From contig CAVVOB010000018.1 of NCBI GenBank assembly GCA_963749655.1, positions 64,001 through 128,000 on the forward strand: a DNA stretch of 64,000 bases. Direction: 5' to 3'. The stretch comes from Nitrospirota bacterium. Its GTDB lineage: Bacteria > Nitrospirota > UBA9217. The translations under genes were made by a program, and so were the position numbers. The notes beneath the pieces are model-generated. The model searched no databases, was not told the origin of the DNA, and saw only the letters and a program-made list of their open reading frames with translations. Within the stretch, counting starts at the first letter, position 1. Each line of letters starts with the position of its first letter. Below, piece after piece: positions 20,858 to 53,238 of the stretch.

Positions 20858-20858
20858 A

Positions 20859-23100: not shown

Positions 23101-23116
23101 GAGAGTCCTTTCTTCA

Positions 23117-33574: not shown

Positions 33575-33836
33575 GCTCTTTGAAAATCATGCTCGGTCTG
33601 AAACTGACAACCCTTCTCGGAGTAATCTCGATCTCCTGACCGGTCTTGGGGTTGCGGCCTTTCCGGGCATTCTTTTTCCGGACGACGAAGTTCCCGAAAC
33701 CGGAAAGCTTGACGGTTTCTCCTTCTTTGAGCGTCTGCTTGACCATGTCCAGAATCATCTCGACCAGCTCCTCAGCGTCCTGCTTCGGCAAGCCGACTTT
33801 GTCAAAAACCTCAGAGATGATGTCTGCTTTTGTCAT
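33534..33836 (-). CDS. ihfA: Integration host factor alpha subunit
   Basis: MTKADI, VKLSGFGNF, GRNPKTGQEIEITPRRVVSFRPS. Confidence 0.93.
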   Translation of the reverse strand: MTKADIISEVFDKVGLPKQDAEELVEMILDMVKQTLKEGETVKLSGFGNFVVRKKNARKGRNPKTGQEIEITPRRVVSFRPSMIFKEHVIETPATTASTE

Positions 33837-35872: not shown

Positions 35873-35884
35873 ACCATCCTGCAT

Positions 35885-35921
35885 GAGCAGCGGGGCGCAA
35901 ATGCCCCGCTGTTCTCTTGTT
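35885..35921 (+). terminator. Terminator after the nitrite reductase gene
   Basis: GAGCAGCGGGGC-GCAAAT-GCCCCGCTGTTC followed by a T-rich tail. Confidence 0.7.
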
Positions 35922-35937
35922 CATCGACGCTCCCTTC

Positions 35938-35965
35938 TTGACTTTCCCTCCCGCTATGTTATTCT
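35938..35965 (+). promoter_or_regulatory. Probable nuo operon promoter (leaderless nuoA)
   Basis: TTGACT-16 bp-(TG)N-TATTCT, 6 nt before the nuoA ATG. Confidence 0.5.
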
Positions 35966-35971
35966 TTTAGC

Positions 35972-36391
35972 ATGCTTCCCAATGCTTTAGAAGATGTCGT
36001 TCTCTGGCCCCTGGGCGTCTACTTTGCCGCCGTCGTCGGTCTTGTTATCTTTATGATCACGTTCTCCTATCTTCTCGGAGAGCGCCACCGGGAAAAACAG
36101 ACAGCGGAACCCTATGAATCGGGCATCGTATCCACGGGGACGGCGCGCGTCCGCTTCGACATAAAATTCTATCTCGTCGCCATGTTTTTCGTCATCTTCG
36201 ACCTGGAGGCCGTATTCATTTTTTCCTGGGCCGTTTCCATCCGGGAGACGGGATGGACCGGGTACGGCGAAATGCTCATCTTCATCGCGGTGCTGACTGC
36301 GGCTCTCGTATATATATGGAAGCTCGGAGCGCTCGAATGGGGCTCCTTTGTAAAGCATAGTTCAAGGTTCAAAGTTCCAGGTTCAAAGTAA
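35972..36391 (+). CDS. nuoA: NADH-quinone oxidoreductase subunit A
   Basis: PYESGI, KFYLVAMFFVIFDLEAVF, KLGALEW. Confidence 0.95.
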   Translation: MLPNALEDVVLWPLGVYFAAVVGLVIFMITFSYLLGERHREKQTAEPYESGIVSTGTARVRFDIKFYLVAMFFVIFDLEAVFIFSWAVSIRETGWTGYGEMLIFIAVLTAALVYIWKLGALEWGSFVKHSSRFKVPGSK

Positions 36392-36467
36392 AGGCATCAA
36401 CTCAAAACTAATAACTCAAAACTATAAACTCCGCGCTTTGGGAACTCTGAACTATGAACTATAAACT
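36358..36467. repeat. Nested heptamer repeat element at nuoA/nuoB, overlapping both coding ends
   Basis: TAGTTCA AGGTTCA AAGTTCC AGGTTCA; CAACTCA AAACTAA TAACTCA AAACTAT AAACT; GGAACT CTGAACT ATGAACT ATAAACT. Confidence 0.85.
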
Positions 36468-37068
36468 CACCAAGCCCGGCCTCGATTCCCTCGAGGACGC
36501 TGTCCGGAAAAGCCTTTTACTGACGCGGCTGCAGGACATGCTCGCCTGGGGACGGAAGAACTCCATCTGGCCCTTCAATTTCGGCCTTTCCTGCTGCTAC
36601 GTGGAAATGGCCACGAGCCTCACGAGCAAATACGATATCGCGCGGTTCGGCGCCGAAGTAATGCGCGGCACGCCCCGCGAAGCGGATATGATGATCATCG
36701 CCGGGACCGTCTTCATCAAGATGGCGCCGGTTATCAAGCGGCTCTACGAGCAGATGATGGAGCCCCGGTGGGTCATCTCCATGGGCTCGTGCGCCAATTC
36801 CGGCGGCATGTACGACATCTACAGCGTGGTGCAGGGCGTGGACAAATTCCTGCCGGTGGACGTCTACGTTCCCGGCTGTCCGCCGCGGCCGGACGCGTTC
36901 ATGGAAGGCCTTCTGATGCTGCGCGAAAAGGTCGGCAAGGAACGGCGGCCCTTGAGCTGGGTCGCCGGGCCGCAGAACGTGATACGGCCCGAAATGCCGT
37001 GCATGCGCGATCTGAAACGGGAGGAACGCAGAAAGGCGTCGTTCCTGAGGTCGCCGGATGAAGTGTAA
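36454..37068 (+). CDS. nuoB: NADH-quinone oxidoreductase subunit B
   Basis: [27 protein letters not shown]. Confidence 0.96.
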
Positions 37069-37073
37069 GACTG

Positions 37074-37154
37074 CAGTTTTTAGTTTTTAGTTCTTAGTTC
37101 TTAAGACGATACTGCACTTCCAACTTAAAACTCAAAACTAAAAACTCAAAACTG
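37074..37154. repeat. Inverted heptamer element at nuoB/nuoCD
   Basis: CAGTTTT TAGTTTT TAGTTCT TAGTTCT ... CAACTTA AAACTCA AAACTAA AAACTCA AAACTG. Confidence 0.88.
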
Positions 37155-37171
37155 AAACAACTCTTTCCCTT

Positions 37172-38911
37172 ATGGTTCCTATCACCGACAATCTGAAGAC
37201 GGCCTTCCCCGATGCACTCCTTGCCATCCAGGAAACCCGCGACGCCATTCCCACGTTCTGGGTGAAGCCGGAACGGGCAGCCGATGTTCTCCGCCATCTC
37301 AAGACCGGCATAACGAGCCCCTATCGCACCCTCTACGATCTCACCGCCATCGACGAACGGATGAGAAACAACCGGCCGGACCAGCCGGCGAGCGATTTCA
37401 CGGTCGTGTATCATCTTCTTTCCTATGACCGGAACGACGATGTCCGTATCAAAGTGCCGCTCAAGGGAACGGAGCCGTCGCTTCCCACGATCACGGGGCT
37501 CTGGCAGTCCGCTGACTGGTACGAACGGGAAGTCTGGGACATGTTCGGGATCAGGTTCGACGGCCACCCGCATCTGAAAAGGATCCTGATGCCGCCGACG
37601 TGGAAAGGTCATCCTTTGCGCAAGGACCATCCGGCGCGGGCAACCGAGATGGGCCAATTCCGTCTGCCTGATGAGAAGGAGGAAGCGGAACAGACGGCGC
37701 TCCTGTTCAAACCGGAAGATTGGGGTATGGAGCGGGAGTCCGAAGACACGGACTTCATGTTCCTGAACCTCGGACCGCAGCATCCCGGCACGCACGGTCT
37801 CATCCGCTTCGTATTGCAACTCGACGGAGAAACGATCAAGAATGCCGTACTGGATATCGGCTACCATCACCGGGGCGCGGAAAAGATGGCTGAGCGGCAG
37901 TCCTGGCACACGTACATCCCCTATACCGACCGCGTCGACTATCTCGGCGGGGTAATGAACAACATGGCCTACTGCCTTGCCGTTGAGAAGCTTGCAGGCA
38001 TCGAGGTCCCGGACCGCGCCAAGACCATCCGGGTCATGCTCGCCGAGCTCTTCCGCATCGCAAGCCACCTCGTCTGGTACGGCACCTTTGCACAGGATGT
38101 GGGCTCCCTCTCGCCCGTGTTCTACATGTTCACGGACCGCGAACGGGTCTTCGACATCATCGAGGCCGTGTGCGGCGGCCGCATGCATCCCGAATGGTTC
38201 CGGATCGGGGGCGTGGCCCAGGACCTGCCCAAGGGCTGGGACGACCTGGTCAGGAACTTCCTTAAATACCTGCCGCCGCGGCTCAAGGAATACGATTCCA
38301 TCGTGATGCGGAACAGCATCTTCAAGGCGCGCACCAAGGGCGTCGGCAAATACTCCCTTGACGATGCCATCGATTGGGGCGTGACCGGACCGGGCCTCCG
38401 CGCCTGCGGTTTTGAATGGGACTTCCGCAAGAAGCGCCCCTATTCAGGGTACGAAAACTTCGAATTCGACATCCCGACGGCAACAAACGGCGACTGCTAC
38501 GACCGCGGCGTGGTCCGTATCGAAGAGATCCGCCAGAGCCTGCGCATCGTCGAGCAGTGCATGAAAAACATGCCCGCGGGGCCGTACAAGTCCGATCATC
38601 CGCTCGCGACGCCGCCGCGCAAGGAACGCACCATGCACGATATCGAAACGCTCATCAACCATTTCCTGAGCGTAAGCTGGGGACCGGTCATCCCTGCCGG
38701 CGAAGCCTTCATGGGCATCGAAGCCACGAAGGGAAACAACGGCTATTACCTGATCAGCGACGGGAGCACGGTGTCGTACCGCACGCGGATACGCACGCCT
38801 TCCTTTGCGCACCTGCAGATGGTGCCGAAGATCAGCAGGGGCCTGATGATCGCCGACCTCCTGGCGATCCTGGGGAGCATTGATTTTATTTTGGCGGATC
38901 TGGACAGATAG
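37172..38911 (+). CDS. nuoCD: NADH-quinone oxidoreductase fused subunit C/D
   Basis: [48 protein letters not shown]. Confidence 0.96.
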
Positions 38912-38914
38912 GGG

Positions 38915-38948
38915 CAGTTTTGAGTTCAGAGTTTTTAGTTTTGAGTTG
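38915..38948. repeat. Single heptamer arm at nuoCD/nuoE
   Basis: CAGTTTT GAGTTCA GAGTTTT TAGTTTT GAGTTG. Confidence 0.82.
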
Positions 38949-38979
38949 AAAGCACTGAGTTTACATTGCAGACTATTTC

Positions 38980-39444
38980 ATGCTATCGAAAGAAGAGATA
39001 AACAAGATTAACGCCGAGCTGGTCCATGCCGTCACCAAGGCCTCGGCATCCGTTGACGCGCTCAATATCCTCCAGCGCAGCCGCGGCTGGGTGTCCGACG
39101 ATGCAGTAAAGGACGTTGCCGCGCTCCTGGAGATGACTGCCGACGAAGTGGACGCGGTGGCCACGTTCTACAGCTTCATTTTTAGAAAGCCCGTCGGCAA
39201 ACACGTCATCCTCATCTGCGACAGCATCTCCTGCTGGGTCATGGGATACAATCCCCTGCTGGATCTGATGAAGAACAAACTCGGCATCGCATTCGGCGAG
39301 ACAACGGCAGACAAACGGTTCACCCTTCTCCCCATCTCCTGCCTTGGCGCTTGTGACCGTGCACCGGCAATGATGGTCGACGACGATCTCCACGGTCCGG
39401 TAACTCCAGAGATGATGGAAGGGCTACTGGAAAAGTACAAGTAA
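38980..39444 (+). CDS. nuoE: NADH-quinone oxidoreductase subunit E
   Basis: VATFY, CDSISC, CLGACDRAP. Confidence 0.95.
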   Translation: MLSKEEINKINAELVHAVTKASASVDALNILQRSRGWVSDDAVKDVAALLEMTADEVDAVATFYSFIFRKPVGKHVILICDSISCWVMGYNPLLDLMKNKLGIAFGETTADKRFTLLPISCLGACDRAPAMMVDDDLHGPVTPEMMEGLLEKYK

Positions 39445-39448
39445 TAGC

Positions 39449-39551
39449 TTTGCCACGAATTATCACGAATTAACACGAATAAAACATTAGACTTGAGAAC
39501 AAAATTTTAAAATCTCTTTAAATTCGTGAAAATTCGTGTCAATTCGTGGCT
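39449..39551. repeat. Inverted 10-mer (CACGAATT) repeat element at nuoE/nuoF
   Basis: GCCACGAATT ATCACGAATT AACACGAATA ... AATTCGTGAA AATTCGTGTC AATTCGTGGC. Confidence 0.92.
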
Positions 39552-39562
39552 GAAAAGGTTTT

Positions 39563-40834
39563 ATGGAACGACCTCTCACAAAAAACATACGCGCCGGCCA
39601 GGAGCCCCTTTCGCTTCAGGAATATGAGAAAGCCGGCGGCTACCAGGCCCTGCGCAAGGCCCTCACGATGACGCCCCAGCAGGTGCAGGACGTGGTCAAG
39701 ACTTCAAACCTCCGCGGCCGCGGGGGCGCTGGGTTCCCCACGGGGATGAAGTGGAGCTTTGTGCCCATGGGCGACAAAGCGCCCCGTCCCAAGTACTTCG
39801 TGGTCAATGCCGACGAAATGGAACCCGGCACGTTCAAGGACCGGCTCCTCCTCGAAGGCGATCCCCACCAGATCATCGAAGGAGTCATCATCAGCTCCTT
39901 TGCCATCGAGGCGGAGCAAGCCTTCATCTTTGTGAGGTGGGCTTATAAGCTTGCGGTAAAGCGGCTGGAGAAGGCCATTGCCGAAGCCTATGAGAAAGGC
40001 TATCTGGGAAAGAATATCCTCGGTTCCGGCTTCAGCCTCGAGCTTCGCATCCACGGGAGCGCGGGCCGCTATATTTGCGGCGAGGAAACAGCTCTCCTGA
40101 ACGCTCTTGAAGGAAAGCGCGCAACACCCCGGGCCAAGCCGCCGTTCCCGCAGGTCTGCGGTCTTTTCGGCAAGCCCACGATCGTGAACAATGCCGAGAC
40201 CGTTGCGAACATCCCCCATATCATCGGCAACGGGCCTGACTGGTTCAAGTCCTTGAGCACAAGCCCTGACGCGGGGACCAAGCTCTTCGGCGTCAGCGGC
40301 CGGGTCAAAAAACCCGCCATCTGGGAGCTGCCCATGGGAGTGACGGTGCGCGAGCTTCTGGAAGAGCACGCCGGCGGCATGCAGGACGGCTACTCCTTCC
40401 GCGGCGTGATCCCCGGCGGCGCATCGACCGACTTTCTCGTGCAAGAGCATCTCGATGTAAAAATGGACTTCGACTCGGTCATGAAAGCCGGCAGCCGTCT
40501 CGGTACAGGAACCATGATAGTGCTCGATGATAAGACCTGCCCCGTGGGCTTCGTGCATAATATGGAAGTCTTCTTTGCCCGCGAGTCCTGCGGCTGGTGC
40601 ACGCCCTGCCGCGAGGGCCTCCCGTGGATCGAGAAGATGCTCCGGGCCATCGAGAACGGGCAGGGAGAAATGGACGATATCGACATCCTTGCACAGCAAT
40701 GCAGGCTTCTCGGACCGGGAAACACCTACTGCGCACTGGCCCCCGGCGCGGTCGAGCCGCTCCAGAGCGCGATAAAGTACTTCCGGGAAGACTTTGAGAA
40801 GCATATTCATGGGAAGAAGTGCCCGTGGAAATGA
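39563..40834 (+). CDS. nuoF: NADH-quinone oxidoreductase subunit F
   Basis: LRGRGGAGFPTG, NADEMEPGTFKDR, YICGEETAL, ESCGWCTPCREG. Confidence 0.97.
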   Translation: MERPLTKNIRAGQEPLSLQEYEKAGGYQALRKALTMTPQQVQDVVKTSNLRGRGGAGFPTGMKWSFVPMGDKAPRPKYFVVNADEMEPGTFKDRLLLEGDPHQIIEGVIISSFAIEAEQAFIFVRWAYKLAVKRLEKAIAEAYEKGYLGKNILGSGFSLELRIHGSAGRYICGEETALLNALEGKRATPRAKPPFPQVCGLFGKPTIVNNAETVANIPHIIGNGPDWFKSLSTSPDAGTKLFGVSGRVKKPAIWELPMGVTVRELLEEHAGGMQDGYSFRGVIPGGASTDFLVQEHLDVKMDFDSVMKAGSRLGTGTMIVLDDKTCPVGFVHNMEVFFARESCGWCTPCREGLPWIEKMLRAIENGQGEMDDIDILAQQCRLLGPGNTYCALAPGAVEPLQSAIKYFREDFEKHIHGKKCPWK

Positions 40835-40868
40835 TCGCCACGAATAAGAGGAGTAAAAAAACCTTGCT

Positions 40869-40963
40869 AGCCACGAATTGACACGAATTTTCACGAATTT
40901 AAAAGACTTCCAGAAATCTCTTTCTAATTTTAATTCGTGTTAATTCGTGAAATTCGTGGCAAA
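40869..40963. repeat. Second copy of the 10-mer element at nuoF/nuoG, in inverted orientation
   Basis: GCCACGAATT GACACGAATT TTCACGAATT ... AATTCGTGTT AATTCGTGA AATTCGTGGC. Confidence 0.92.
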
Positions 40964-40971
40964 AAAAGCTT

Positions 40972-43506
40972 ATGATTACGATTTTTATCGACAATAAGCA
41001 GTATCAAGTGAAGGAAGGCCGGAACCTCCTTCAAACCTGCTTGTCCCTGGGGTTCGACCTGCCCTACTTCTGCTGGCACCCTGCCATGCATTCCGTGGGC
41101 GCGTGCCGTCAGTGCGCGGTCAAGGTATTCAAGGACGAGAAGGACACCCGCGGCAGGATCATGATGTCCTGCATGACGCCGGCAACGGAGGGGATGCGTT
41201 TGTCTATCGATGATGCGGACGCAAAGGCCTTCCGCAGAAGCGTGGTCGAATGGCTTATGCTCAACCATCCCCATGACTGCCCGGTCTGCGACGAAGGCGG
41301 CGAGTGCCACCTCCAGGACATGACGGTCATGACCGGCCATACGTACCGCAGGACGCGGTTCAAGAAACGCACCCACCGCAACCAGGACCTGGGGCCTTTC
41401 ATCAATCATGAAATGAACCGCTGCATCCAGTGCTACCGCTGCGTCCGGTTCTACCGGGACTATGCGGGGGGAAAGGACTTTGACGTCTTTGCGGCCCACG
41501 ACAGCGTCTATTTCGGACGACACGAGGACGGCACGCTCGAAAACGAGTTCAGCGGCAACCTCGTCGAGGTCTGCCCCACCGGCGTATTTACGGACAAAAC
41601 GCTGAAACATCATTACACCCGCAAGTGGGACCTTCAGACAGCTCCGTCAATCTGCGTTCACTGCGGTCTCGGCTGCAACACCATCCCCGGTGAGCGCTAT
41701 GGAGCGCTCAGGAGAATATTGAATCGCTACAACCATGAGGTGAACGGATACTTTCTCTGCGACCGCGGCCGGTTCGGCTACGAGTTCGTGAACAGCGGGA
41801 AGAGGATCAGAAAGGCACTCTTCAATTCCCCCTCTCCCCGTGCGGGAGAGGGCCGGGGTGAGGGGGGACCGAAGCCTGCGGACAAGACAGAAGCGCTCAA
41901 ACAGATTGTCGATATACTCTCCACCAGCAACGGCATAATCGGCATCGGATCACCCCGCGCCTCCCTGGAATCGAACTTTGCGCTTCGAACGCTGGTCGGT
42001 CCCGAGAACTTTTACGCAGGGATGTCCACAGAGGATCAAAGGCTGGTCTCGCTCATCATTGACATTCTGAGGAACGGTCCGGCATATACGCCGTCGCTGC
42101 ATGACGTAGAAATGGCCGATGCAGTCCTTGTACTCGGAGAGGACGTGACGAACACGGCGCCCCTTCTCGACCTGGCTCTGCGCCGCTCGGTGCGTAATCA
42201 GCCGGTAGATGCAGTGGAAAAGAAGCGGATACCGCGATGGGACGATAACGCGGTCCGGAACATGATCCAGGACGAAAGAGGCCCGCTCTATATTGCCGCT
42301 GCAGGAGAGACCAGGCTGGACAATGCTGCTGCAAAGACCTATCACGCGGCACCTGACGCTCTGGCAAGACTCGGATTTGCTGTCGCACACGAGTTGAGTC
42401 CTGATGCACCTGCTGTTGAAGATCTTTCCGTTGACACAGCCTTTCTTGCGCGGGAGATTGCCCAGGCGCTTAAAAACGCCCAGCACCCGGTCGTCATCTC
42501 CGGTACCAGCCTCGGCAATGAGTCCTTGATAAAGGCTGCTGCAAATGTGGCCTGGGCTTTATGCCAAAGCGGGAAGCCGGCGGGGCTTTTCTATACCGTG
42601 CCCGAGTGCAACAGCTTGGGGATGGGGCTCATGGGCGGGAAGGGCCTCGATCAAGCGTTCAAGGCTGTCCACGAAGGCAAAGCAGCTACCGTAATTATTC
42701 TGGAGAATGACCTTTATCGCAGGGCCGATGAGAAGTCTGTTAATGATTTTCTGAGCACAGCGCGCTGCGTGATCGCTCTCGACCATCTGATAAATCCGAC
42801 CTCCTCGAAGGCGCAGATCACTCTCCCGGCAGCCACCTTTGCCGAGGCAGACGGCACGCTCGTGAACAACGAGGGAAGGGCCCAACGATTTTATCAAGTG
42901 TTTACGCCCAATCTTGACATCCAGGATAGCTGGAAATGGCTTCGTGATATACTCCCAGCATCGGACCGGAAAGAAGCCGGTGAGTGGTTGTCATTCGACG
43001 ATATCGGGAAAGACCTGGCGGCGTCGCTCGACATTTTCAAGCTCCTGCCGGACCTGGCTCCCCCTGCCGACTTCCGCGTTGCCGGGGCGAAGATCCCCCG
43101 ACAGCCCCATCGCTACAGCGGCAGAACAGCGATGCTCGCGAACATCAGCGTCCACGAACCCAAGCCCGTTGACGACCCGGACACGCCCCTTTCCTTCTCA
43201 ATGGAAGGCTACGAAGGGAAGCCTCCTGCAGCGCTTATCTCGCGCTACTGGTCGCCGCGATGGAACTCGGTCTCGGCGTTGAACAAGTTCCAGCAGGAAG
43301 TGGGCGGTCCGCTTAAAGGGGGAGATCCGGGAAAGAGATTGATAGAACCGATACGCGACGGGAAGCAGGCGTATTTTACCGACGTTCCATCGAAAGCGAT
43401 GCCGGGGCAACAGGAAGCTCCGCAATATGATATTTTCAGATCAGAGGAATTAAGCGCTCAGGCTCCGGCAATAATCGAGCGGGCGAGAACGAGAAAGCGA
43501 CAATAA
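40972..43506 (+). CDS. nuoG: NADH-quinone oxidoreductase subunit G
   Basis: PYFCWHP, GACRQC, NHPHDCPVCDEGGECHLQD, RCIQCYRC, CVHCGLGC, LCDRGRFG. Confidence 0.96.
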   Translation: MITIFIDNKQYQVKEGRNLLQTCLSLGFDLPYFCWHPAMHSVGACRQCAVKVFKDEKDTRGRIMMSCMTPATEGMRLSIDDADAKAFRRSVVEWLMLNHPHDCPVCDEGGECHLQDMTVMTGHTYRRTRFKKRTHRNQDLGPFINHEMNRCIQCYRCVRFYRDYAGGKDFDVFAAHDSVYFGRHEDGTLENEFSGNLVEVCPTGVFTDKTLKHHYTRKWDLQTAPSICVHCGLGCNTIPGERYGALRRILNRYNHEVNGYFLCDRGRFGYEFVNSGKRIRKALFNSPSPRAGEGRGEGGPKPADKTEALKQIVDILSTSNGIIGIGSPRASLESNFALRTLVGPENFYAGMSTEDQRLVSLIIDILRNGPAYTPSLHDVEMADAVLVLGEDVTNTAPLLDLALRRSVRNQPVDAVEKKRIPRWDDNAVRNMIQDERGPLYIAAAGETRLDNAAAKTYHAAPDALARLGFAVAHELSPDAPAVEDLSVDTAFLAREIAQALKNAQHPVVISGTSLGNESLIKAAANVAWALCQSGKPAGLFYTVPECNSLGMGLMGGKGLDQAFKAVHEGKAATVIILENDLYRRADEKSVNDFLSTARCVIALDHLINPTSSKAQITLPAATFAEADGTLVNNEGRAQRFYQVFTPNLDIQDSWKWLRDILPASDRKEAGEWLSFDDIGKDLAASLDIFKLLPDLAPPADFRVAGAKIPRQPHRYSGRTAMLANISVHEPKPVDDPDTPLSFSMEGYEGKPPAALISRYWSPRWNSVSALNKFQQEVGGPLKGGDPGKRLIEPIRDGKQAYFTDVPSKAMPGQQEAPQYDIFRSEELSAQAPAIIERARTRKRQ
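41827..41866. repeat. GC-rich palindromic element in frame inside nuoG
   Basis: TCCCCCTCTCCCCGTGCGGGAGAGGGCCGGGGTGAGGGGG, translated SPSPRAGEGRGEG. Confidence 0.75.
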
Positions 43507-43513
43507 ACGGGGT

Positions 43514-43615
43514 GCGTCATTCCTGCGAAAGCAGGAATCCAGGGTCTTCAGGAAGAGTCGCTGGATTCCCCCTGCCTCAAGCATGCAGGGGCAGGCTTGC
43601 AAGCCCGGAATGACG
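43514..43615. repeat. dRS3/REP-like palindromic element at nuoG/nuoH with a nested ~30-bp insert
   Basis: CGTCATTCCTGCGAAAGCAGGAATCCAG ... CTGGATTCC[CCCTGCCTCAAGCATGCAGGGGCAGGCTTG]CAAGCCCGGAATGACG. Confidence 0.9.
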
Positions 43616-43697
43616 GCATTGGCTACGGCAGTTTGAACAGGTTAACTTTTTCGTATCATGGCGTCAACGTCTTAGCGGCAACAAATATAAATCATTA

Positions 43698-44663
43698 ATG
43701 ATAGACATGCCAGTCATTCAAAAACTTGCCATCCTCTTCGGCATTCTTTTCGTGGTGCTCACGATCGGCGGAATGCTGATCTGGCTCGAGCGTCGCCTGC
43801 TCGGCCTATGGCAGGACCGCTACGGACCGAACCGCGTCGGTCCCTTCGGCCTCCTGCAGGTGCTGGCGGATATGATCAAAGTGTTCACCAAGGAGGACTG
43901 GATCCCGCCTTTCGCAGACAAGGCGGTCTTCATCATCGCGCCTGCCGTGATCGTCGTGGTCGTGCTCATGTCCTTTGCCATCATCCCCTTCGCGCCGGGG
44001 ATCGAAATCGTGGACCTGAACATTGGGCTCCTATTCTTTCTTGCCATGTCTTCCCTGGGAGTATACAGTGTCGCCCTGGCAGGCTGGGCGTCGAGCAGCA
44101 AGTATTCGCTCCTCGGCGGGCTCCGCGCCTCGGCCCAGATGCTTGCATACGAGGTCTTCATGGGCCTGTCGCTCATGGGAGTGGTGATGCTCGCGGGGTC
44201 GTTCAATCTTCGCGAGATCGTCGAGGCCCAGCGCCATCTGTGGTTCGTCGTGCCCCAGTTCATCGGGTTCGTGATTTTCTTCATCGCCGGAATCGCTGAA
44301 ACCCACCGCCTCCCCTTTGACCTGCCCGAGGCGGAGAGCGAGCTCGTGGCCGGCTATCATTCGGAATACTCGGGCATGAAGTTCGGCATGTTCTTCGTGG
44401 GCGAGTATCTCGGGATCACGCTCATCTCGGCGCTCACGACGGCCCTGTTCTTCGGCGGGTGGCTGGGCCCCTGGCTTCCGCCCGTGGTCTGGTTTATGAT
44501 CAAGACGTTTTTTTTCATCTGCTTTTTCATCCTGCTCCGGGCTGCGCTCCCCCGGCCGCGGTATGATCAGCTCATGGCTTTTGGATGGAAAGTGATGCTG
44601 CCCTTGTCGCTGGCAAATCTGCTCGTGACGGGGGCGGTTGTTTTGATAAAAGCAAACCAATAA
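43698..44663 (+). CDS. nuoH: NADH-quinone oxidoreductase subunit H
   Basis: [47 protein letters not shown]. Confidence 0.96.
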
Positions 44664-44693
44664 ACCGGGGTCGGTACACGGGTTTTCACTATG

Positions 44694-44782
44694 GCGTCAT
44701 TCCTGCGAAAGCAGGAATCCAGGGATTTTCAGTTTGAAGAAAAGACTAAGCCGCTGGATTCCGGGTCAAGCCCGGAATGACG
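44694..44782. repeat. Second, direct copy of the dRS3/REP-like element at nuoH/nuoI
   Basis: CGTCATTCCTGCGAAAGCAGGAATCCAG ... CTGGATTCCGGGTCAAGCCCGGAATGACG. Confidence 0.92.
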
Positions 44783-44801
44783 AATAAAGGATAAAAATGT
44801 A

Positions 44802-45317
44802 ATGTTCAGCCTTCTTAAAACAATCTGGACGGTCTTCATGACCATGTTCCGCAAACGGGCGACGATCCTGTACCCCGAAGAGCGGCCCTACATCCCTCCC
44901 CGGTGGCGCGGCAGGATCATACTCTCGCGCGACCCCGATGGAGAGGAACGCTGCGTTGCCTGCTACCTCTGCGCCGTCGCCTGCCCCGTGGACTGTATTT
45001 CGCTCCAGGCGACCGAGGACGCGCACGGAAGGCGATCTCCCGAATTTTTCAGGATCAATTTTTCACGATGTATTTTCTGCGGCTATTGCGAAGAAGCATG
45101 CCCGACCTATGCGATCCAGTTGACGACTGATTTCGAAATGAGTGAATACAAACGGCAGAACCTTGTCTACGAAAAGGAAGACCTGCTCATCAGCGGGCCG
45201 GGCAAATACCATGACTACAATTTCTACCGCGAAGCGGGACTGTCGATCAAAGGCAAGGACAAGGGCGAAGCAAAGAACGAAGAAAAACCGGTGGACGTGA
45301 AGGACTTAATGCCATAA
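44802..45317 (+). CDS. nuoI: NADH-quinone oxidoreductase subunit I
   Basis: [24 protein letters not shown]. Confidence 0.96.
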
Positions 45318-45323
45318 ACAATT

Positions 45324-45390
45324 TTGACAGGATAACAGGATCGGCGGTAAGAAAATTTCACCCGATCTTTATCCCGTTATCCAATCCAAA
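45324..45390. repeat. Inverted ACAGGAT repeat element at nuoI/nuoJ
   Basis: TTGACAGGATAACAGGAT ... TTATCCCGTTATCCAATCCAAA. Confidence 0.8.
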
Positions 45391-45396
45391 CTCTTT

Positions 45397-45891
45397 ATGA
45401 ATTTACTTTTTTATATATCAGCAGTTGTCGCCGCGGTCTCGACCTTCATGGTTATAACCAGAAAGAGCGCTGTCCATGCTCTTCTGTACCTGATCGTGTC
45501 GCTTCTTGCCGTGGCGCTCATATTCTTTGCCCTCGGCGCGCCCTTTGTTGCCGCCCTGGAGGTCATCATTTACGCAGGGGCCATCATGGTGCTTTTCGTA
45601 TTCGTGATCATGATGCTGAACCTCGGCTCGCAGGCTGCGGAGCAGGAATCGCTCTGGCTTTCGCCGGGAATCTGGAGCGGCCCGTCCCTGCTCGCCTCAG
45701 TTCTCGCCGGGGAGCTCCTGTACGCCTTCACAGCAGGACAGGCTAGGACTGTCACGGCCGGGCTGATCGGTCCCAAGCAGGTCGGCATTGCCCTCTTCGG
45801 CCCTTATGTAGTCGGCGTGGAGCTGGCGTCGATGCTGCTTTTGGCAGGTTTGATCGGGGCCTATCACCTCGGCAGGCCGCACAAGCACTGA
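45397..45891 (+). CDS. nuoJ: NADH-quinone oxidoreductase subunit J
   Basis: ALEVIIYAGAIMVLFVFVIMMLN, VELASMLLL. Confidence 0.95.
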   Translation: MNLLFYISAVVAAVSTFMVITRKSAVHALLYLIVSLLAVALIFFALGAPFVAALEVIIYAGAIMVLFVFVIMMLNLGSQAAEQESLWLSPGIWSGPSLLASVLAGELLYAFTAGQARTVTAGLIGPKQVGIALFGPYVVGVELASMLLLAGLIGAYHLGRPHKH

Positions 45892-45904
45892 AAGATATTT
45901 ATTC

Positions 45905-45968
45905 GACAGGATAACAGGAGCGACAGGATTTTAAAGATTCTATCAGATCCTTATCCCGTTATCCTGTC
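45905..45968. repeat. Second, direct copy of the ACAGGAT element at nuoJ/nuoK
   Basis: GACAGGATAACAGGAGCGACAGGATT ... GATCCTTATCCCGTTATCCTGTC. Confidence 0.85.
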
Positions 45969-45983
45969 CAAAAGGAGTTGCCT

Positions 45984-46295
45984 TTGATCTCAAACATCCC
46001 CATGGAACACGGCCTCATCCTCGCCGCCATTCTCTTCGCGCTCGGGCTTGTCGGCGTTCTTGTGCGGCGGAACATCGTCTTCATGCTCATGTCCATCGAG
46101 ATCATGCTGAACGCCGTGGGCCTGGCCTTCGTAGTCGCCGGAGCGCGGTGGGGCCAGGTTGACGGCCAGGTGATGTTCATTTTCATCCTCACGATGGCGG
46201 CTGCCGAGGTTTCCGTGGGGCTGGCTCTCGTTCTGCAGATGTATCACAGCTTCAAAACGCTCGATGCCGACGCAGCGAGCAGGATGAAAGGATAA
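45984..46295 (+). CDS. nuoK: NADH-quinone oxidoreductase subunit K (TTG start after AAGGAG; start uncertain)
   Basis: [28 protein letters not shown]. Confidence 0.94.
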
Positions 46296-46304
46296 CTTGG
46301 CCAT

Positions 46305-46336
46305 CAACTCGAAACTCGAAATTTAGAACTATGAAC
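46305..46336. repeat. Single heptamer arm at nuoK/nuoL running into the nuoL start codon
   Basis: CAACTCG AAACTCG AAATTTA GAACTAT GAAC. Confidence 0.65.
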
Positions 46337-48227
46337 GCCTTTCTTTTTTTAATACCCGCTCTCCCCTTTGCCGGATTTATCATCCTGGCGCTCGCGGGCC
46401 GTCGCTTATCTAAACCCACGACGGCTGTCATCGGCGCAGGCTCCGTGGGGCTGTCCGCTCTTCTCGCGGTCCTGACCGCCATACAATTCGTGGTCTCGCC
46501 TCCGCAGGGCCGGGCTATCACCCAGACGCTCTGGACGTGGATGCAGTTCGACGGCTATGAACCGGCGATTGCCCTCGTGCTCGATCCGCTCTCGCTCATC
46601 ATGGTGCTCGTCGTGACTATCGTGGGCTTCCTGATCCACATCTATTCCGCGGAGCATATGGAACATGAGGAAGGCTACAGCCGTTTCTTTGCCTACATGA
46701 ATCTTTTCGTAGGCGCCATGCTGACGCTGGTGCTTGCCGACAATCTGTTGTTCCTCTATCTCGGGTGGGAAGGCGTCGGCCTCTGCAGCTACCTTCTGAT
46801 CGGTTTCTGGTACAAGGACCCGCTGAACGGACAGGCGGCGCGCAAAGCCTTCATCGTCACGCGCATCGGCGATACGGCCATGGCCCTCGGTCTTTTTCTG
46901 CTGTTTACGAGCTTCAACACGCTCAATATCCAGGAGCTTATGCAGGCTGTATCGAAGCAGTGGCCTGCGGGCTCATCGACTGCAATTCTCGCGGCAGCGC
47001 TCCTGCTCGGCGGCGCCGTGGGCAAGTCCGCCCAGCTTCCGCTTCAGACCTGGTTGCCTGATGCCATGGCGGGCCCCACGCCCGTGAGCGCACTGATCCA
47101 CGCGGCGACCATGGTAACCGCCGGCGTCTACCTCATCGCCCGGACCCACGTGCTCTTTGCCCTCGCCCCTGCAGTGCAGACCGCGGTGGCTGTTATCGGA
47201 GCGCTGACCCTGCTCCTGGCCGGGTTCAGCGCGCTCACGCAGAAGGATATCAAGCGCGTTCTCGCCTATTCGACGATCAGCCAGATCGGCTACATGTTCC
47301 TGGCCCTGGGCGTAGGCGCCTGGTCAGCGGCCCTGTTCCATTTCATGACCCATGCCTTCTTCAAGGCCCTCCTGTTCCTCGCCGCCGGCGTCGTGATCAT
47401 GGCCCAGCACGAGGAGCATGATATGTTCAAGATGGGAGGCCTCCGCACCAGGCTCCCGATCACGTTCTGGACTTTCCTGATCGGCGCCTGCTCGCTCTCG
47501 GCCCTGCCGCTCGTGACCGCGGGCTTTTACAGCAAGGACCTGATCCTCTGGCAGGCATGGTCCTCTCCCACCGGAGGCGCCTGGCTCTGGCTCGCCGGAC
47601 TCATAGGCGCTTTCATCACATCGATCTATACCTTCCGCATGGTATTTCTCACGTTCTTTGGTGAGGCGAAAATGGAGCTTAGCTGGAAACCCGGTGCACG
47701 AACTGTCGTTCCGCTCGCGATTCTCGCGTTCTTCTCGGTGATCGGCGGTTTCGTCGATCTGCCGGAGAATCTGGGAAACCTGCCGCTCCTCTCGGACTTC
47801 CTGCAGCCGGTCTTTCATGAGAGCCTTGCAGGATCGGGTACGAAAGGAAATGAAACCCTTTTTCAGGCAATCTCCGGGCTGGTATCGCTGGCGGGAATTT
47901 TTATCGCTTTTATGATTTACGTACGGAGACCGCATTATGCCGACGAAGTCGTTCGAAACTCTGCGGCATCGGCGCTCCACCGTTTCTGGTTCTCGGGCTG
48001 GGGTTTCGACCGTTTGTATGACGCGCTTTTCGTACGGCCTTTCCTCTGGCTGGCGCAGGTAAACAGGAACGATTTCATCGATTCGGTTTATACGGCGAAT
48101 CGCCGGGATCAACCGGGCGGCCAACAGGGTATTAAGCTTGTCACAGACAGGAAGCATCCGCTGGTATGCAATGGGCATGGGGATCGGAGCAGTGGTAATT
48201 TTGGGAATTATCGTGGCCTTTCGTTAG
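46331..48227 (+). CDS. nuoL: NADH-quinone oxidoreductase subunit L (frameshift ~48100)
   Basis: GWEGVGLCSYLLIGFW, GKSAQLPLQTWLPDAMAGPTPVSALIHAATMV; shifted frame ends QTGSIRWYAMGMGIGAVVILGIIVAFR*. Confidence 0.93.
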
Positions 48228-48259
48228 GAAGTAGCACCTCCATTCGGGGGGAACTCAAG

Positions 48260-48322
48260 CGCACCCTAAAGGGTGCGGCTACCTTAAAAGGACCTTTTTG
48301 TAGCCGCAGGCTTTAGCCTGCG
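48260..48322. repeat. Divergent pair of GTAG-type REP sequences at nuoL/nuoM
   Basis: CGCACCCTAAAGGGTGCGGCTAC (48260-48282) and GTAGCCGCAGGCTTTAGCCTGCG (48300-48322): a GTAG foot plus a hairpin, as in RAYT-associated REPs. Confidence 0.85.
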
Positions 48323-48342
48323 CAAGCAGGAAATAATAAAAT

Positions 48343-49870
48343 ATGATCCTTCTTTGGTTCATCATCATACCGCTCCTCGGCGGACTGGGGGCCTGGGTTT
48401 TCGGCAGGAAGAGCGCTTTGGCAGCGCGCTGGATATCGCTCGCGGCCCTCGCCCTCGACAGCGTGCTGCTGGCCCTGTTCTGGTCCGGTTCCTCGTCTCG
48501 GATCGCGATCAGCTACGGCACCTGGCTCCTGGAGCTCCAGAGGCCCTGGATACCGCAGCTCGGCATCAGCCTCCATCTGGCCGTGGACGGCCTGAGCCTG
48601 CTGCTGGTCGCGCTCACCTTGTTTCTCGGCGTCATCTCCGTGGTCTGCTCCTGGACCGAGATCCGCGAGCGCGTGGGGTTCTTTCATTTCAATCTGATGG
48701 CGATCCTCGGCGGCATTCTGGGAGTGTTCCTGTCCCTGGACCTGTTCCTGTTTTATTTCTTCTGGGAGCTGATGCTCGTGCCCATGTATTTCCTGATCAG
48801 CATCTGGGGCCACGAGAACCGGACCTATGCCTCGCTCAAGTTCTTCATCTTCACCCAGGCAGGCGGCCTCCTCATGCTGCTTTCTATTCTCGGCCTGTAC
48901 TTCATCCACGGCCGGGCACACGGCTTCTACACCTTCGACTATGTCCTGCTTCTCGGAACACAGCTCGCGCCCGGGACTGCCCTCTGGCTCATGCTCGGGT
49001 TCTTCATCGCCTTTCTCGTAAAGCTGCCGGCCATGCCCTTCCACCCCTGGCTCCCGGACGCCCATACCGAAGCTCCCACCGCCGGAAGCGTTATTCTCGC
49101 GGGCCTGCTCTTGAAGACCGGTGCCTACGGTCTCCTGCGCTTCGTCCTGCCGCTCTTTCCCGATGCGGTCATGGCTGTCACTCCACTGGTCATGACCATG
49201 GCCGTCGCAGGCATTATCTACGGCGCTGTGCTCGCCTTTGCCCAGACCGACCTCAAGCGGCTCGTGGCCTACACCAGCGTGAGCCATATGGGCTTCGTGC
49301 TGCTCGGCATTTTCGCCTGGAACCAGACAGCGCAGCAGGGTGCGGTTATGCAGATGCTGGCCCACGGCGTGAGCACCGGCGCCCTGTTCATCGTCGTCGG
49401 CATGATCCAGGAGCGCATTCATACCCGCGATCTGGACCGCATGGGAGGTTTCTGGACCGCTGCCCCGCGCCTGAGCGGAGTCGCCCTCGTCTTCGGACTC
49501 GCATCGCTCGGTTTGCCTGGATTCGGAAATTTCGTGGCCGAGTTCATGGTGCTCCTCGGCACGTTCCGGGTAAACGTCTTTGCCGCTGTCTATCGCGGCC
49601 CTGGGGCTCGTATTCGCTGCTGTCTATTCCCTCTGGATGATCCAGCGCGCTTTTCACGGCGAGCAGAAGGGACCATCCGGCATGGCCGACCTTTCCCTCC
49701 GTGAAGCAGGTATGATGGCGGTGCTGATCATCGCGATCTTCTGGCTCGGTCTTTTCCCCAAGCCGATATTGAACACCTCCGGCCCTGTTTTGAACACGCT
49801 CCAGTGCTGCTCCCCGACATCGCATCAGTCAACGGATGCCGGGGAAAAGACATCGTTGCAGGTCCGATGA
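48343..49870 (+). CDS. nuoM: NADH-quinone oxidoreductase subunit M (frameshift ~49590)
   Basis: FFWELMLVPMY, WLPDAHTEAPTAGS, LKRLVAYTSVSHMG, LGLPGFGNFVAEF. Confidence 0.93.
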
Positions 49871-49885
49871 GAGAGGAGGCGCAAA

Positions 49886-51351
49886 GTGACGAGCACGGAG
49901 CTCACTGCCATCCTTCCGCTTATCATCATTGCTGCTGCGTCAGTGGCGGTCATGGTTGTCATAGCCATTTACCGAAGCCACCTTCTCACGGTCCTGATCA
50001 CGCTCGCAGGGCTTGCGCTGGCAGCCGCATCGCTTCCGACAATATCGTTACTGGCGCCTCGTCCGGTCACCCAGCTTCTCATGATCGACTGGTATGCGCT
50101 CTTCTACATGGGCCTGATATTTCTCGCAGCCTTCGCTGTGGCTGCAATCTCCTACTCTTATTTGGAAAAGCATGCCGGCCATCGTGAAGAGTTCTACCTG
50201 CTCCTGCTCCTGGCTACACTGGGAACCGCCGTGCTCGTTGCGAGCACCCACTTTGCCGCGCTCTTCCTCGGGATCGAAACCCTGAGCGTGTCGCTCTATG
50301 CTTTGGCCGCCTATCTCAGGCACAGCGACCGCGGCATCGAGGCCGGCGTCAAGTACCTGATCCTTGCCGCCGTCTCCTCCGCCTTCATGCTCTTCGGCAT
50401 GGCACTCGTGTACGCGGAGACCGGAAGCATGGAATTTGGACAGATCGCCTCACGGCCGGCAGCGGGCGTCACCGGTCTGCCTTTCACGGTCGGGATGGGA
50501 CTGATCATCGTGGGGCTGGGTTTCAAACTCGCCGTAGTGCCTTTCCACCTCTGGACGCCTGATGTGTACGAAGGCGCGCCGGCGCCGGTCACGGCCTTTA
50601 TCGCCACGGTATCCAAGGGCGCCGTGTTCGCGCTCATCATGCGTTTCTTTTCCAGCATCGACATCCATGCCGACCAATCGCTCTTTATGATCTTCGCGCT
50701 CATAGCAGCGGCCTCCATGTTCACGGGCAATCTGCTGGCCCTGTTCCAGAACAACGTCAAACGCATTCTGGCCTACTCTTCGATATCCCATCTCGGCTAC
50801 CTGCTCGTCACCCTGCTGGCAGGCGGCCCTGTCGCCGCAGGCGCCGCGGCCTTTTATCTCGTTGCTTACTTCATCACGACCCTCGGCGCTTTCGGCGTCG
50901 TGACCGTGCTCTCCGGCAGCGAGCGCGACGCTGACCTCATGGAGGACTACGCGGGCCTGGCCTGGCGCAGTCCCTGGACTTGCAGGCGTGTTCACGCGCC
51001 ATGCTGTTCTCGCTGGCCGGCATCCCGCTGACCGCCGGATTCGTGGGGAAATTTTACGTCGTTGCCGCCGGCGCAGACTCAGCGCTCTGGCTTCTGCTCG
51101 TCGTCCTCGTGATCAACAGCGTCATCGGACTGTTCTACTATCTGCGCATCATCGTGACGCTCTTCGGCCGACCTGACCGGGAAACCCTTGCCGAACCCGC
51201 GCTCTCCCGGTCAGGCAGTGCGGTACTTGCCGCACTCACGCTTCTCCTTGTCTGGGTTGGCGTGTATCCGGGGCCGGTGATTCAATTGATACAGAAAATG
51301 GCGCACAGTCTGACATATAATCATCTCATCCGTAGCCGGAGGTCCTCATGA
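49886..51351 (+). CDS. nuoN: NADH-quinone oxidoreductase subunit N (frameshift ~50985)
   Basis: EAGVKYLIL, FKLAVVPFHLWTPDVYEGAP, KRILAYSSISH; second frame SLAGIPLTAGFVGKF, YYLRII. Confidence 0.92.
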
Positions 51352-53190: not shown

Positions 53191-53238
53191 CAAGAAATAG
53201 TGACGGGAAAATCTGAAGTCACGAGCTGCGCGAAATGC

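Follow-up and report, generated by a model that had tools for sequence, protein, structure and literature searches.

The nuoF gene of this nuo operon is enclosed by two elements, copies A and B, which are best explained by local inverted copying of a presumably dispersed intergenic repeat whose action, if it has any, would be through intercistronic RNA hairpins; confidence in this reading is moderate. The two represent a single palindromic repeat, non-coding and about 115 nt long, whose arms consist of three 10-nt-phased CACGAAT(T) units, one element having apparently been copied locally from the other, flanks included. They fall among the intergenic hairpin or "paired tandem-repeat" elements, akin to REP/BIME, the STRR hairpins of cyanobacteria and the paired sites of Geobacter metallireducens. 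Four such families fill the nuo spacers more widely, with neighbouring spacers tending to share one. Nothing was found to suggest that the two sequences serve NuoF as a dedicated on/off switch. The features concerned, numbered within the window (the whole 64-kb stretch of DNA analysed), are as follows.

35885-35914: terminator-like hairpin belonging to the upstream gene
35938-35965: promoter-like site upstream of the nuoA-nuoN operon
35972..51351, forward strand: nuoA to nuoN operon, E. coli type, with fused nuoCD
39446..39562, no strand assigned: element copy A, occupying the entire nuoE-nuoF spacer; flank AGCTTT on the left, three CACGAAT units forming the left arm (39452-39480), an AT-rich spacer, three ATTCGTG units forming the right arm (39521-39550), and right flank ending in AAGGTTTT, immediately 5' of the nuoF ATG
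39517..39551, forward strand: first copy of the perfect 35-nt inner repeat, comprising the right arm of A and TTTAAA
39563..40834, forward strand: nuoF, intact, 423 aa, NCBIfam TIGR01959 (NuoF)
40837..40845, forward strand: solo GCCACGAAT unit directly after the nuoF stop codon
40858..40970, no strand assigned: element copy B, the inverted copy of A, in the nuoF-nuoG spacer; left arm 40870-40899, right arm 40932-40960, flanks the reverse complement of those of copy A
40869..40903, reverse strand: second copy of the perfect 35-nt inner repeat, corresponding to the left arm of B

Each element is composed of three CACGAATT units with a 10-nt period, an AT-rich stretch of 30-40 nt and three AATTCGTG units; across the two copies, the 3 + 3 units follow a period of 9-10 nt and the arms lie 34-41 nt apart. 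The arms of copy A are 29 nt long, 86% complementary and separated by 41 nt. CACGAATT occurs 15 times in the window, compared with 2.3 expected, and 11 of these 15 occurrences fall within the two nuoF-flanking spacers. As originally predicted, the 35-mer at 39517-39551 (forward strand) is the exact reverse complement of 40869-40903, with 0 mismatches, and the outer arms (39449-39480 and 40933-40963) are reverse complements save for one 1-nt indel. The accompanying claim that the whole element is duplicated in inverted orientation also holds, for a length of about 115 nt, spacer-to-spacer local alignment scoring 125 in the inverted and 62 in the direct orientation. This inverted match spans the arms, part of the central spacer and both asymmetric flanks; the flanks shared by A and B are non-palindromic, with AGCTTT on one side and AAGGTTTT at an equal offset on the other.

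When up to 3 mismatches are allowed, the 35-mer has a single other site in the 64-kb window (40869-40903, reverse strand), and 100 shuffles gave 0 matches. Eleven of its positions are variable among family members elsewhere and are nevertheless identical in both copies, which argues for direct copying rather than family resemblance. A local inverted copy, which the original prediction had mentioned as the simpler alternative, is the best-supported reading. A point against it is that the ends of A and B show no matching direct repeat that could represent a target-site duplication. A BLAST search with element A returned one partial 29-nt match among plasmids and none among phages, and Rfam at gathering thresholds reported two tRNAs and nothing else in the whole window; at E values up to 5, the region 35800-46400 gave just sub-threshold microRNA-precursor look-alikes, which are generic hairpins. 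The arms of A and B are identical at 66 of 67 positions, with the central spacer aligning over only about half. Such a pattern could mean selection on the arms, including for a long-range helix, rather than neutrality.

The pair around nuoF is one of several such arrangements in the operon. Ten of the 11 spacers from nuoA to nuoM carry a palindromic or tandem-unit repeat belonging to family a, b (the CACGAAT elements), c or d, and the eleventh, nuoL-M, holds a family c fragment. Adjacent spacers share a family in 5 of 10 cases (permutation P = 0.025). Within the 64 kb, families a, b and d are confined to nuo spacers, and family b is present in two copies. The principal members outside the nuoF pair are listed below.

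36392-36453, 38912-38979 and 46296-46330: family a half-arms
37069..37171, no strand assigned: nuoB-nuoCD spacer, family a hairpin of AGTTTTT/AAAAACT units (-21.6 kcal/mol, z -4.1)
43507..43697, no strand assigned: nuoG-nuoH spacer, family c, NTS-like hairpin 43515-43542 plus an inverted partner
44664..44801, no strand assigned: nuoH-nuoI spacer, family c direct copy, NTS-like hairpin 44695-44722
45318..45396, no strand assigned: nuoI-nuoJ spacer, family d hairpin (GACAGGATAACAGGA ... TTATCCCGTTATCC)
45892..45977, no strand assigned: nuoJ-nuoK spacer, family d direct copy

The statement that the duplication lies around nuoF only is accordingly correct for the CACGAAT family within the window but not for repeats in general, as other families bracket nuoB, nuoCD, nuoH and nuoJ likewise. 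The brackets of nuoF and nuoCD are inverted, whereas those of nuoH (family c, alignment 67 direct versus 23 inverted) and nuoJ (family d, 56 direct versus 30 inverted) are direct, so bracket orientation looks arbitrary. In the nuoH and nuoJ pairs, as in A and B, the arms are better matched than the central spacers. With hairpin repeats of four families in nearly all of its intercistronic gaps, and neighbours alike, this long and essential respiratory operon offers a compact natural test bed for the local spread of repeats and their effect on polycistronic mRNA.

It had been proposed that recombination at the 35-bp (or ~100-bp) inverted repeats flips nuoF and thereby toggles NADH input to complex I. 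Such an invertible DNA switch is now regarded as highly improbable. The perfect 35-bp inverted repeat lies within about 100 bp of near-identical sequence, with the two copies 1.3 kb apart, a length sufficient for rare RecA-dependent inversion. Rnf genes are indeed present at 18899-24525, although the assembly shows rnfD, too, in interrupted form. When 42 large and 60 small window ORFs were scanned against Pfam, they revealed no serine or tyrosine recombinase near nuoF; the only recombinase in the window is a fragmented Phage_integrase ORF (2835-4110) beside a tRNA, about 35 kb from nuoF, and neither an invertase nor a tyrosine recombinase lies within about 35 kb. The enclosed segment consists of the nuoF coding sequence and is promoterless, promoter-like matches in the spacers being at shuffle level (6 found versus 5.1 expected). 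Inversion would therefore give only antisense RNA and silencing of nuoF, in an otherwise intact operon from which NuoE and NuoG would still be made. Known complex I variants lack the entire NuoEFG module and are not known to lack NuoF alone. Moreover, the comparable repeats around nuoH and nuoJ run in direct orientation, so that recombination there would cause deletion, not inversion. Hin/Gin-type segments and promoter invertons resemble the present arrangement in having inverted repeats around a segment of about 1 kb; however, they possess their own adjacent recombinase gene and an internal promoter or alternative gene parts, both of which the nuoF segment lacks. The dedicated switch is not supported: the window has no nearby recombinase, the segment is promoterless, and it is one instance of an operon-wide filling by four families. 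For NuoF the consequence of the repeats would be little, with no sign of a regulated NADH-input toggle. Its product scores 604.6 bits against TIGR01959 (cut-off 558.65) over residues 5-415, and the third-position GC content of the gene (0.76) is similar to that of neighbouring genes. nuoM and nuoN are broken by frameshifts in this assembly.

At the RNA level, each copy is predicted to form a stable intercistronic hairpin of -36 to -41 kcal/mol, because the operon would be transcribed through both. The computed local hairpins have energies of -36.5 kcal/mol (z -6.8) for copy A and -41.5 kcal/mol (z -6.4) for copy B. They begin 1-7 nt from the upstream stop codon and end 11-12 nt before the next start codon, a position from which any effect would be expected on mRNA-segment stability or translation initiation. 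Such an effect may resemble that described for REP and proposed for STRR, with no NuoF-specific toggle.

The two copies can also pair with each other, and the claim that cross-gene pairing is better than either element's own hairpin is borne out by duplex energies of -56.7 kcal/mol for the right arm of A with the left arm of B and -46.3 kcal/mol for the left arm of A with the right arm of B, compared with -36.2 and -37.9 kcal/mol for the local arm pairs. The minimum-energy fold of 39440-40975 contains 100 A:B base pairs enclosing nuoF and no local hairpin; in it, the solo GCCACGAAT unit at 40837-40845 pairs with the outermost unit of the right arm of B in a shifted register. RNase III cuts the stalks that flank 16S and 23S rRNA, and by analogy A might base-pair with B, 1.3 kb away, to give an interrupted ~100-bp helix enclosing nuoF, with a 40-bp helix around nuoCD, both of which RNase III would cut to release or control single cistrons. 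This processing model is considered improbable, even though folding calculations favour it: the inner 35-bp helix has a mean pair probability of 0.98 in equilibrium folding of the naked 1.5-kb RNA, the long-range structure of a mini-construct reaches -135.1 kcal/mol versus -78.0 kcal/mol for both local hairpins, the linker bases are unpaired within either element and perfectly paired across elements, and the nuoCD bracket (the nuoB-nuoCD spacer with the nuoCD-nuoE spacer), likewise inverted, yields 40 long-range pairs in its minimum-energy fold. However, any imperfect palindrome copied in inverted orientation will pair perfectly with its copy, so the A:B cross-pairing provides no evidence of selection. 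Hairpin A would be complete 1.3 kb of transcription ahead of B, and the barrier from local to long-range refolding is estimated at about 25 kcal/mol (a heuristic upper bound from the findpath direct path). The three other brackets tested, those of nuoB, nuoH and nuoJ, fold locally. In the relative P0011, from the same 90% NuoF cluster, the NuoF ORF carries a 78-aa N-terminal extension without similarity to element A; the content of the nuoE-nuoF spacer therefore appears not to be conserved in that relative, and tblastn with the extension detected nothing significant in the window or the fetched loci. The flanks of rRNA units of 1.5-2.9 kb similarly pair into a long enclosing helix, but theirs is conserved and experimentally supported, whereas the nuoF helix is a thermodynamic prediction on a translated mRNA. 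The RNA loop-out originally suggested thus stands as a thermodynamically favoured structure in silico, yet one that inverted imperfect palindromes form automatically, also around nuoCD, and that faces a large refolding barrier. The preference of naked-RNA equilibrium folding for the nuoF-enclosing helix, at a probability of about 0.98, nevertheless counts against the favoured reading of A and B as independent hairpins.

Among the closest architectural counterparts of A and B are the "predicted global regulator binding sites" (classes 1-3) of Geobacter metallireducens (Aklujkar et al. 2009, PMC2700814), described as arrays of 3-5 tandem repeats of 7-9 nt that occur in pairs, one array on each strand, with a varying distance between them. 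A and B share this layout, three tandem units on one strand being matched by three on the other, again with some variation in their distance. The Geobacter sites are likewise intergenic, with many families per genome and a predicted function, and one lies within an operon, between proB and proA (PMC2700814). Architecture is the sole shared feature in that description: the Geobacter units are GTTGCTYN, TCTCCGTS[Y] and MTYCTGA, not CACGAAT, their period is 7-9 nt rather than the 10 nt of A and B, and the host is of a different phylum (PMC2700814). Each class comprises 8-24 pairs counted genome-wide (PMC2700814), compared with two copies of the CACGAAT family counted in the 64-kb window. STRR repeats of filamentous cyanobacteria are also made of tandem short units and form a hairpin between two genes of a redox-enzyme operon, hupS and hupL, where an effect on transcript stability or translational coupling has been proposed (PMC2670836). 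Their units are 7 nt long, as in family a and unlike family b, they are described in cyanobacteria, and a gene-bracketing inverted pair is absent from the passages of PMC2670836 drawn on here.

REP/BIME elements and MITEs such as Chunjie resemble A and B as small intergenic imperfect palindromes, found within operons, with stable hairpins at the RNA level and an influence on mRNA stability; REP/BIME sequences are in addition binding sites for IHF, gyrase and DNA polymerase I (PMC3184786). A and B are themselves imperfect palindromes with stable hairpins between genes. As described in PMC3184786, REP elements differ in having GC-rich stems without internal tandem units, and MITEs in having terminal inverted repeats and target-site duplications, of which none were found at A and B. 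No cognate transposase is seen in the window. The spread of the copies was probably protein-mediated and acted on hairpin DNA, by analogy with the REP/RAYT transposase or the NTS/Ssn nuclease. Tandem-unit repeats were thus known before, in the Geobacter sites and STRR, and have never been explained; literature searches by motif string and for a general description of tandem-unit hairpins gave nothing relevant and nothing specific, respectively.

Arms of three CACGAAT units with a 9-10-nt period were sought in one scan of a genome-contig collection, and tandem arms were recovered at no fewer than 124 loci, compared with about 2.4 expected by chance according to the arithmetic of the analysis. 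These correspond to at least 157 arms in at least 121 non-redundant loci, which come from one archaeal MAG and otherwise from bacteria belonging to many phyla. Among the 124 listed loci there is no syntenic relative of the window, and BLAST of the window against all of them gave 11 short matches, every one inside the elements. Flanking DNA was examined for 80 of the 124. Of those loci that are 3 kb or longer, 57 of 74 are intergenic with a called ORF on either side, and the same loci (648 kb) contain 61 additional tandem arrays whose units are of many kinds; a shuffled control gave 0. Arm spacing in 20 hairpins from other genomes ranges from 1 to 205 nt.

The repeats might instead act as DNA. 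In such a case, the phased arms would be binding or cleavage sites for a protein such as IHF/HU, gyrase, or an SsnA-like, hairpin-specific single-strand nuclease or transposase, and would serve chromosome structure or the control of recombination or DNA uptake, not nuo expression. Recognition by a protein in this way is considered unlikely, although several observations agree with it. The 9-10-nt phasing of a 7-8-nt unit places the copies on one helix face; a C directly precedes the outermost unit in 136 of the 157 arms listed; and two orthologous Flavobacterium sites retain the units while their linkers differ. Solo arms in other genomes show no bias relative to the orientation of flanking genes (outer side 14 versus 16, inner side 15 versus 15), which is easier to reconcile with a role at the level of DNA than of RNA and, to that extent, counts against the preferred reading as RNA hairpins. 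IHF/HU binding was proposed by the Geobacter authors for their analogous sites (PMC2700814), and an HU/IHF-family gene lies at 33534-33836. On the other hand, the window ORFs scanned against Pfam yielded no GIY-YIG gene, and unit sequences are very diverse across arrays, beyond what one protein explains. No gene family recurs beside the arms in the genomes examined, the largest cluster in an all-against-all comparison of neighbouring ORFs spanning 5 loci.

A further parallel, which also speaks for protein recognition, is provided by the NTS/SRM repeats, known from Neisseria (NTS) and forming hairpins clustered around genes and bracketing them ("NTS-gene-NTS") in many bacteria; NTS serve SsnA as single-stranded DNA substrates that it binds and cleaves (PMC11893778). 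Family c, which occupies the neighbouring nuoG-H and nuoH-I spacers, agrees with the 28-nt NTS consensus of PMC11893778: the copies at 43515-43542 and 44695-44722 each differ from CGTCATTCCCGCGMAVGCGGGAATCYRG by 2 mismatches, which form a compensating stem pair, and shuffles gave 0 matches. The degenerate SRM pattern, as transcribed, possibly imperfectly, from PMC11893778, has no match to the family c copies, and Pfam scanning of 102 window ORFs found no ssn (GIY-YIG_unchar_3) gene. The likeness is restricted to family c, as the CACGAAT elements around nuoF lack the CGTC...GGAATC core.

Two outcomes would give the repeats wider significance, and the chance that either applies is judged slim: cistron-enclosing RNA stalks (100 bp around nuoF, 40 bp around nuoCD), or an as yet unrecognised protein of wide distribution that targets CACGAAT palindromes as DNA. 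The former would mean rRNA-stalk-like processing and subunit-specific control inside the complex I operon, and the latter would parallel the NTS repeats, which proved to be the target of SsnA. The recurrence in many phyla of one exact unit with the same phasing and end structure suggests a recognisable class, which merits a systematic census and a hunt for its partner protein.

Several individual loci deserve mention. At locus L007, paired elements were considered as a gene bracket and rejected, the elements following two tandem paralogous AAA-ATPase genes in what is a segmental duplication. On a Nitrosomonas contig, the arms carry outer AAC...GTT and sit between small toxin-antitoxin genes, so that they may be read as integron attC sites; no integrase was found on that stretch. 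Within the window, further tandem-unit hairpins occur in the rnfE-rnfA spacer and at 57915-58015.

The repeats in the spacers on either side of nuoF belong to an E. coli-type operon that runs from nuoA to nuoN and has nuoC and nuoD fused. Probably a dispersed intergenic repeat that forms hairpins was copied here locally in inverted orientation, within an operon whose spacers are filled with such repeats. The features concerned are:

18899-24525, strand opposite to nuo, rnf cluster
35885-35965, 5' of the nuo operon, terminator-like hairpin and promoter-like site
39446-39562, nuoE-nuoF spacer, element A
39563-40834, nuoF, intact, above the NuoF equivalog cut-off
40858-40970, nuoF-nuoG spacer, element B

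Each spacer carries one hairpin-type element: three CACGAATT units repeating every 10 nt are followed by 30-40 nt of AT-rich sequence and three AATTCGTG units, and the whole is closed by GCC...GGC. In the window, CACGAATT occurs 15 times against 2.3 expected, with 11 of the 15 in these two spacers. As predicted originally, the 35-mer at 39517-39551 has its exact reverse complement at 40869-40903, its single recurrence, on the other strand; allowing up to 3 mismatches adds no further window site, and 100 shuffles yielded none; the outer arms likewise match save for one 1-nt indel, confirmed by alignment. When the whole nuoE-nuoF and nuoF-nuoG spacers are aligned, the score is 125 inverted versus 62 direct, and the inverted alignment takes in the two arms, some of the central spacer and non-palindromic flanks, namely AGCTTT beside the stop codon of nuoE and the start codon of nuoG on one side and AAGGTTTT at the same offset in A and B on the other. 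The arms are identical at 66 of 67 positions, about half of the central spacer aligns, and 11 of the 35 identical 35-mer positions are variable among family members elsewhere. Because the inverted alignment includes the flanks of the whole spacers, the sequences indicate that B is an inverted copy of A, or vice versa, and that the two are not independent family members; a local inverted copy, which the original prediction had named as the simpler alternative, is the best-supported account.

The nuoF stop codon is directly followed (40837-40853) by a solo GCCACGAAT unit and by GAGGAG, a strong Shine-Dalgarno-like sequence. They lie some 120 nt 5' of the nuoG start, with element B between, and this may be the former ribosome-binding site of nuoG, pushed away by element B. 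An obvious Shine-Dalgarno sequence is absent from most nuo genes of the window.

The pattern of spacer repeats is not special to nuoF. From nuoA to nuoM (36392-48342), 10 of 11 spacers hold a palindromic or tandem-unit repeat, with a fragment in nuoL-M, and four families can be distinguished.

Repeat families in the nuo spacers
Family a: AGTTTTT / AAAAACT units; spacers A-B, B-CD, CD-E, K-L
Family b: CACGAATT units; spacers E-F, F-G
Family c: CGTCATTCCTGCGAAAGCAGGAATCCAG; spacers G-H, H-I; fragment in L-M
Family d: GACAGGATAACAGGA; spacers I-J, J-K

The same family occupies adjacent spacers at 5 of 10 adjacencies (permutation P = 0.025), and families a, b and d have no copy outside the operon within the 64-kb window. 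Considering the pairs of spacer repeats that bracket one gene, those of nuoH (score 67 direct versus 23 inverted) and nuoJ (56 versus 30) are direct copies, whereas that of nuoCD consists of inverted copies (46 inverted versus 31 direct). The claim that a whole element is inverted around nuoF only thus stands in its first part, and within the window family b is indeed confined to the two nuoF spacers, but the nuoCD bracket is likewise inverted.

Family c, judged by its sequence, is a known repeat, since it matches the 28-nt Neisseria Transformation Sequence (NTS) consensus at 43515-43542 and 44695-44722, with 2 mismatches per match, mutually compensating within the stem. In both the nuoG-H and nuoH-I spacers the family c hairpin is followed by a more divergent partner in inverted orientation. 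The available portion of PMC11893778 describes NTS-like repeats in many bacteria, clustering around genes, and a GIY-YIG nuclease, SsnA, that binds and cuts NTS as single-stranded DNA; scanning 102 ORFs of the window turned up no GIY-YIG gene. Tandem-unit hairpins also occur outside nuo, at 20758-20858 in the rnfE-rnfA spacer (ATTTCGR / YCGAAAT 7-nt units) and at 57915-58015 between convergent ORFs (GCCACAGAG ... CTCTGTGGC units, -34.8 kcal/mol); a CACAGAG/CTCTGTG pair is present in one locus from another genome (L069) too.

In isolated spacers, hairpins are predicted at -36.5 kcal/mol (z -6.8) for A and -41.5 kcal/mol (z -6.4) for B. In the minimum-energy fold of naked 1.5-kb RNA, A instead pairs with B over 100 bp around nuoF with a probability of ~0.98, and duplex energies of -56.7 and -46.3 kcal/mol across copies versus -36.2 and -37.9 locally bear out the claim that cross-gene pairing is better than either element's own hairpin. 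Such a helix would favour a stalk in the nuo transcript that encloses nuoF; however, any imperfect palindrome present as two inverted copies will necessarily show this long-range preference, hairpin A is complete long before B is transcribed, and the barrier for direct-path refolding from local to long-range pairing is estimated at ~25 kcal/mol (a heuristic upper bound). The modelled fold therefore does not decide for or against loop-out in the cell. The stalk is considered a quite improbable rival reading. The nuoCD bracket (37069-37171 and 38912-38979, mutually inverted) forms 40 long-range pairs in its minimum-energy fold, so nuoF is not the sole cistron predicted to be enclosed, and the nuoB, nuoH and nuoJ brackets fold locally. 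If the copied repeat has an effect, it most likely acts as RNA hairpins between cistrons.

The inverted arrangement had also been read as a candidate invertible DNA switch, in which recombination between the repeats would flip nuoF. That reading is highly unlikely: the window's sole recombinase is a fragmented integrase next to a tRNA, ~35 kb away, and no promoter within the nuoF segment rises above chance level, so that inversion would switch nuoF off with nuoE and nuoG still being produced. The complex I variants known to us lack the whole NuoEFG module, not NuoF alone. There is no support for a dedicated NuoF switch; through RecA, the 35-100 bp of identity could allow inversion, but as a rare accident.

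Many genes of the window are split by frameshifts, including nuoM, nuoN (twice), rnfD, the integrase, addB/addA-like genes (among them an addA-like helicase), transketolase, a PAS-GGDEF gene and a GH57/branching-enzyme gene.

Frameshift-split regions
2835-4110 (integrase)
5778-12200
22068-23124
48343-51351
52265-54556
60189-61974

The assembly seems indel-prone, rather than the genes being pseudogenised en masse; hence Rnf and the complex I membrane arm are not callable as intact or broken from the window sequence, and single-base differences, run lengths and the outer-arm indel of A and B should not be over-read. The third-position GC of nuoF resembles that of neighbouring genes. A NuoF relative in the same 90% cluster (P0011) has an ORF call lengthened by 78 residues at the N-terminus; the extension runs across the upstream spacer and has no similarity to element A, which suggests that nuoE-nuoF spacer content differs between close relatives. 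Just 5' of a cytochrome gene and the nuo operon, 33236-33836 encodes a MerR-family regulator and an HU/IHF-family DNA-binding protein, adjoining a tRNA (33147-33220).

A scan of the GTDB species-representative genomes for three CACGAAT units joined by linkers of 2-4 nt gave at least 124 loci against a chance expectation of ~2.4 by our own arithmetic; leaving out the duplicate stretches L031, L032 and L073 gives at least 121 loci and at least 157 arms (single tandem-unit arrays). Among the matches listed, hosts by record title include Flavobacterium, Chitinophagaceae, Verrucomicrobia, Planctomycetes, Acidobacteria, Chloroflexi, Nitrosomonas, Halofilum, Desulfobacterota and one Thermoplasmata (archaeal) MAG; 136 of 157 arms have a C just before the outermost unit, periods are 9-10 nt, and an opposed arm with at least two identical units lies within 350 nt at 41 of 121 loci, or at 67 of 121 when CACNNAT-type units are counted. 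Across 22 full hairpins, of which 20 come from the loci and 2 from the window, 64 of 110 linker positions are complementary, A and B being exceptions whose linkers pair across copies and not within one copy. Loci of at least 3 kb (n=74) comprise 57 that are intergenic and flanked on each side by a called ORF (35 co-directional, 14 convergent, 8 divergent), 8 within a crude ORF call and 9 at a contig edge. No recurrent gene family was found among neighbouring ORFs of the matches listed, 30 solo arms showed no orientation bias relative to flanking genes, and the exact 35-mer has no occurrence in the 124 loci listed. Other tandem arrays, with many different units, number 61 in 648 kb of these loci versus 0 in a shuffle.

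Literature searches found no published description of the CACGAAT unit itself. The closest description found in the sources available is that of paired sites in Geobacter metallireducens, where opposite strands carry 3-5 tandem repeats of 7-9 nt at variable spacing, one pair lying between proB and proA; the authors' guess was IHF/HU sites (PMC2700814, in part). That arms of the A/B type are protein-recognised DNA elements is a rather unlikely rival reading. As far as the available text of each source goes, cyanobacterial STRR form hairpins between hupS and hupL, with a proposed effect on transcript stability or translational coupling (PMC2670836), and REP/BIME elements influence mRNA stability and are bound by IHF, gyrase and DNA polymerase I (review PMC3184786).

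Across the loci, CACGAAT arms are often paired into hairpins with unrelated central spacers, the preceding bases are usually (A)AC or (T/A)GC among the matches listed, and the sister units CACAGAT, CACTAAT, CACGGAT and CACAAAT also occur. A Nitrosomonas MAG contig (L032, 1-3500) carries ~10 CACGAAT-type elements in 3.4 kb, single or doublet, between small genes (DUF6290 antitoxin-like with ParE-family toxin, DUF2442, PDDEXK_3), including a tandem run of four ORF-less copies; its left arms are consistently C(A/G)CTAAT and its right arms ATTCG(T/C)G, one mismatch per unit being kept. This layout resembles a cassette array, although an integrase is absent from the stretch. In two Flavobacterium species an element sits at the same orthologous intergenic site (L014, 4990-5130; L074, 4990-5035), where one arm has kept its units with a changed linker (TTT versus CAA) and the other has decayed in one species, GTG becoming GTA or GCA.
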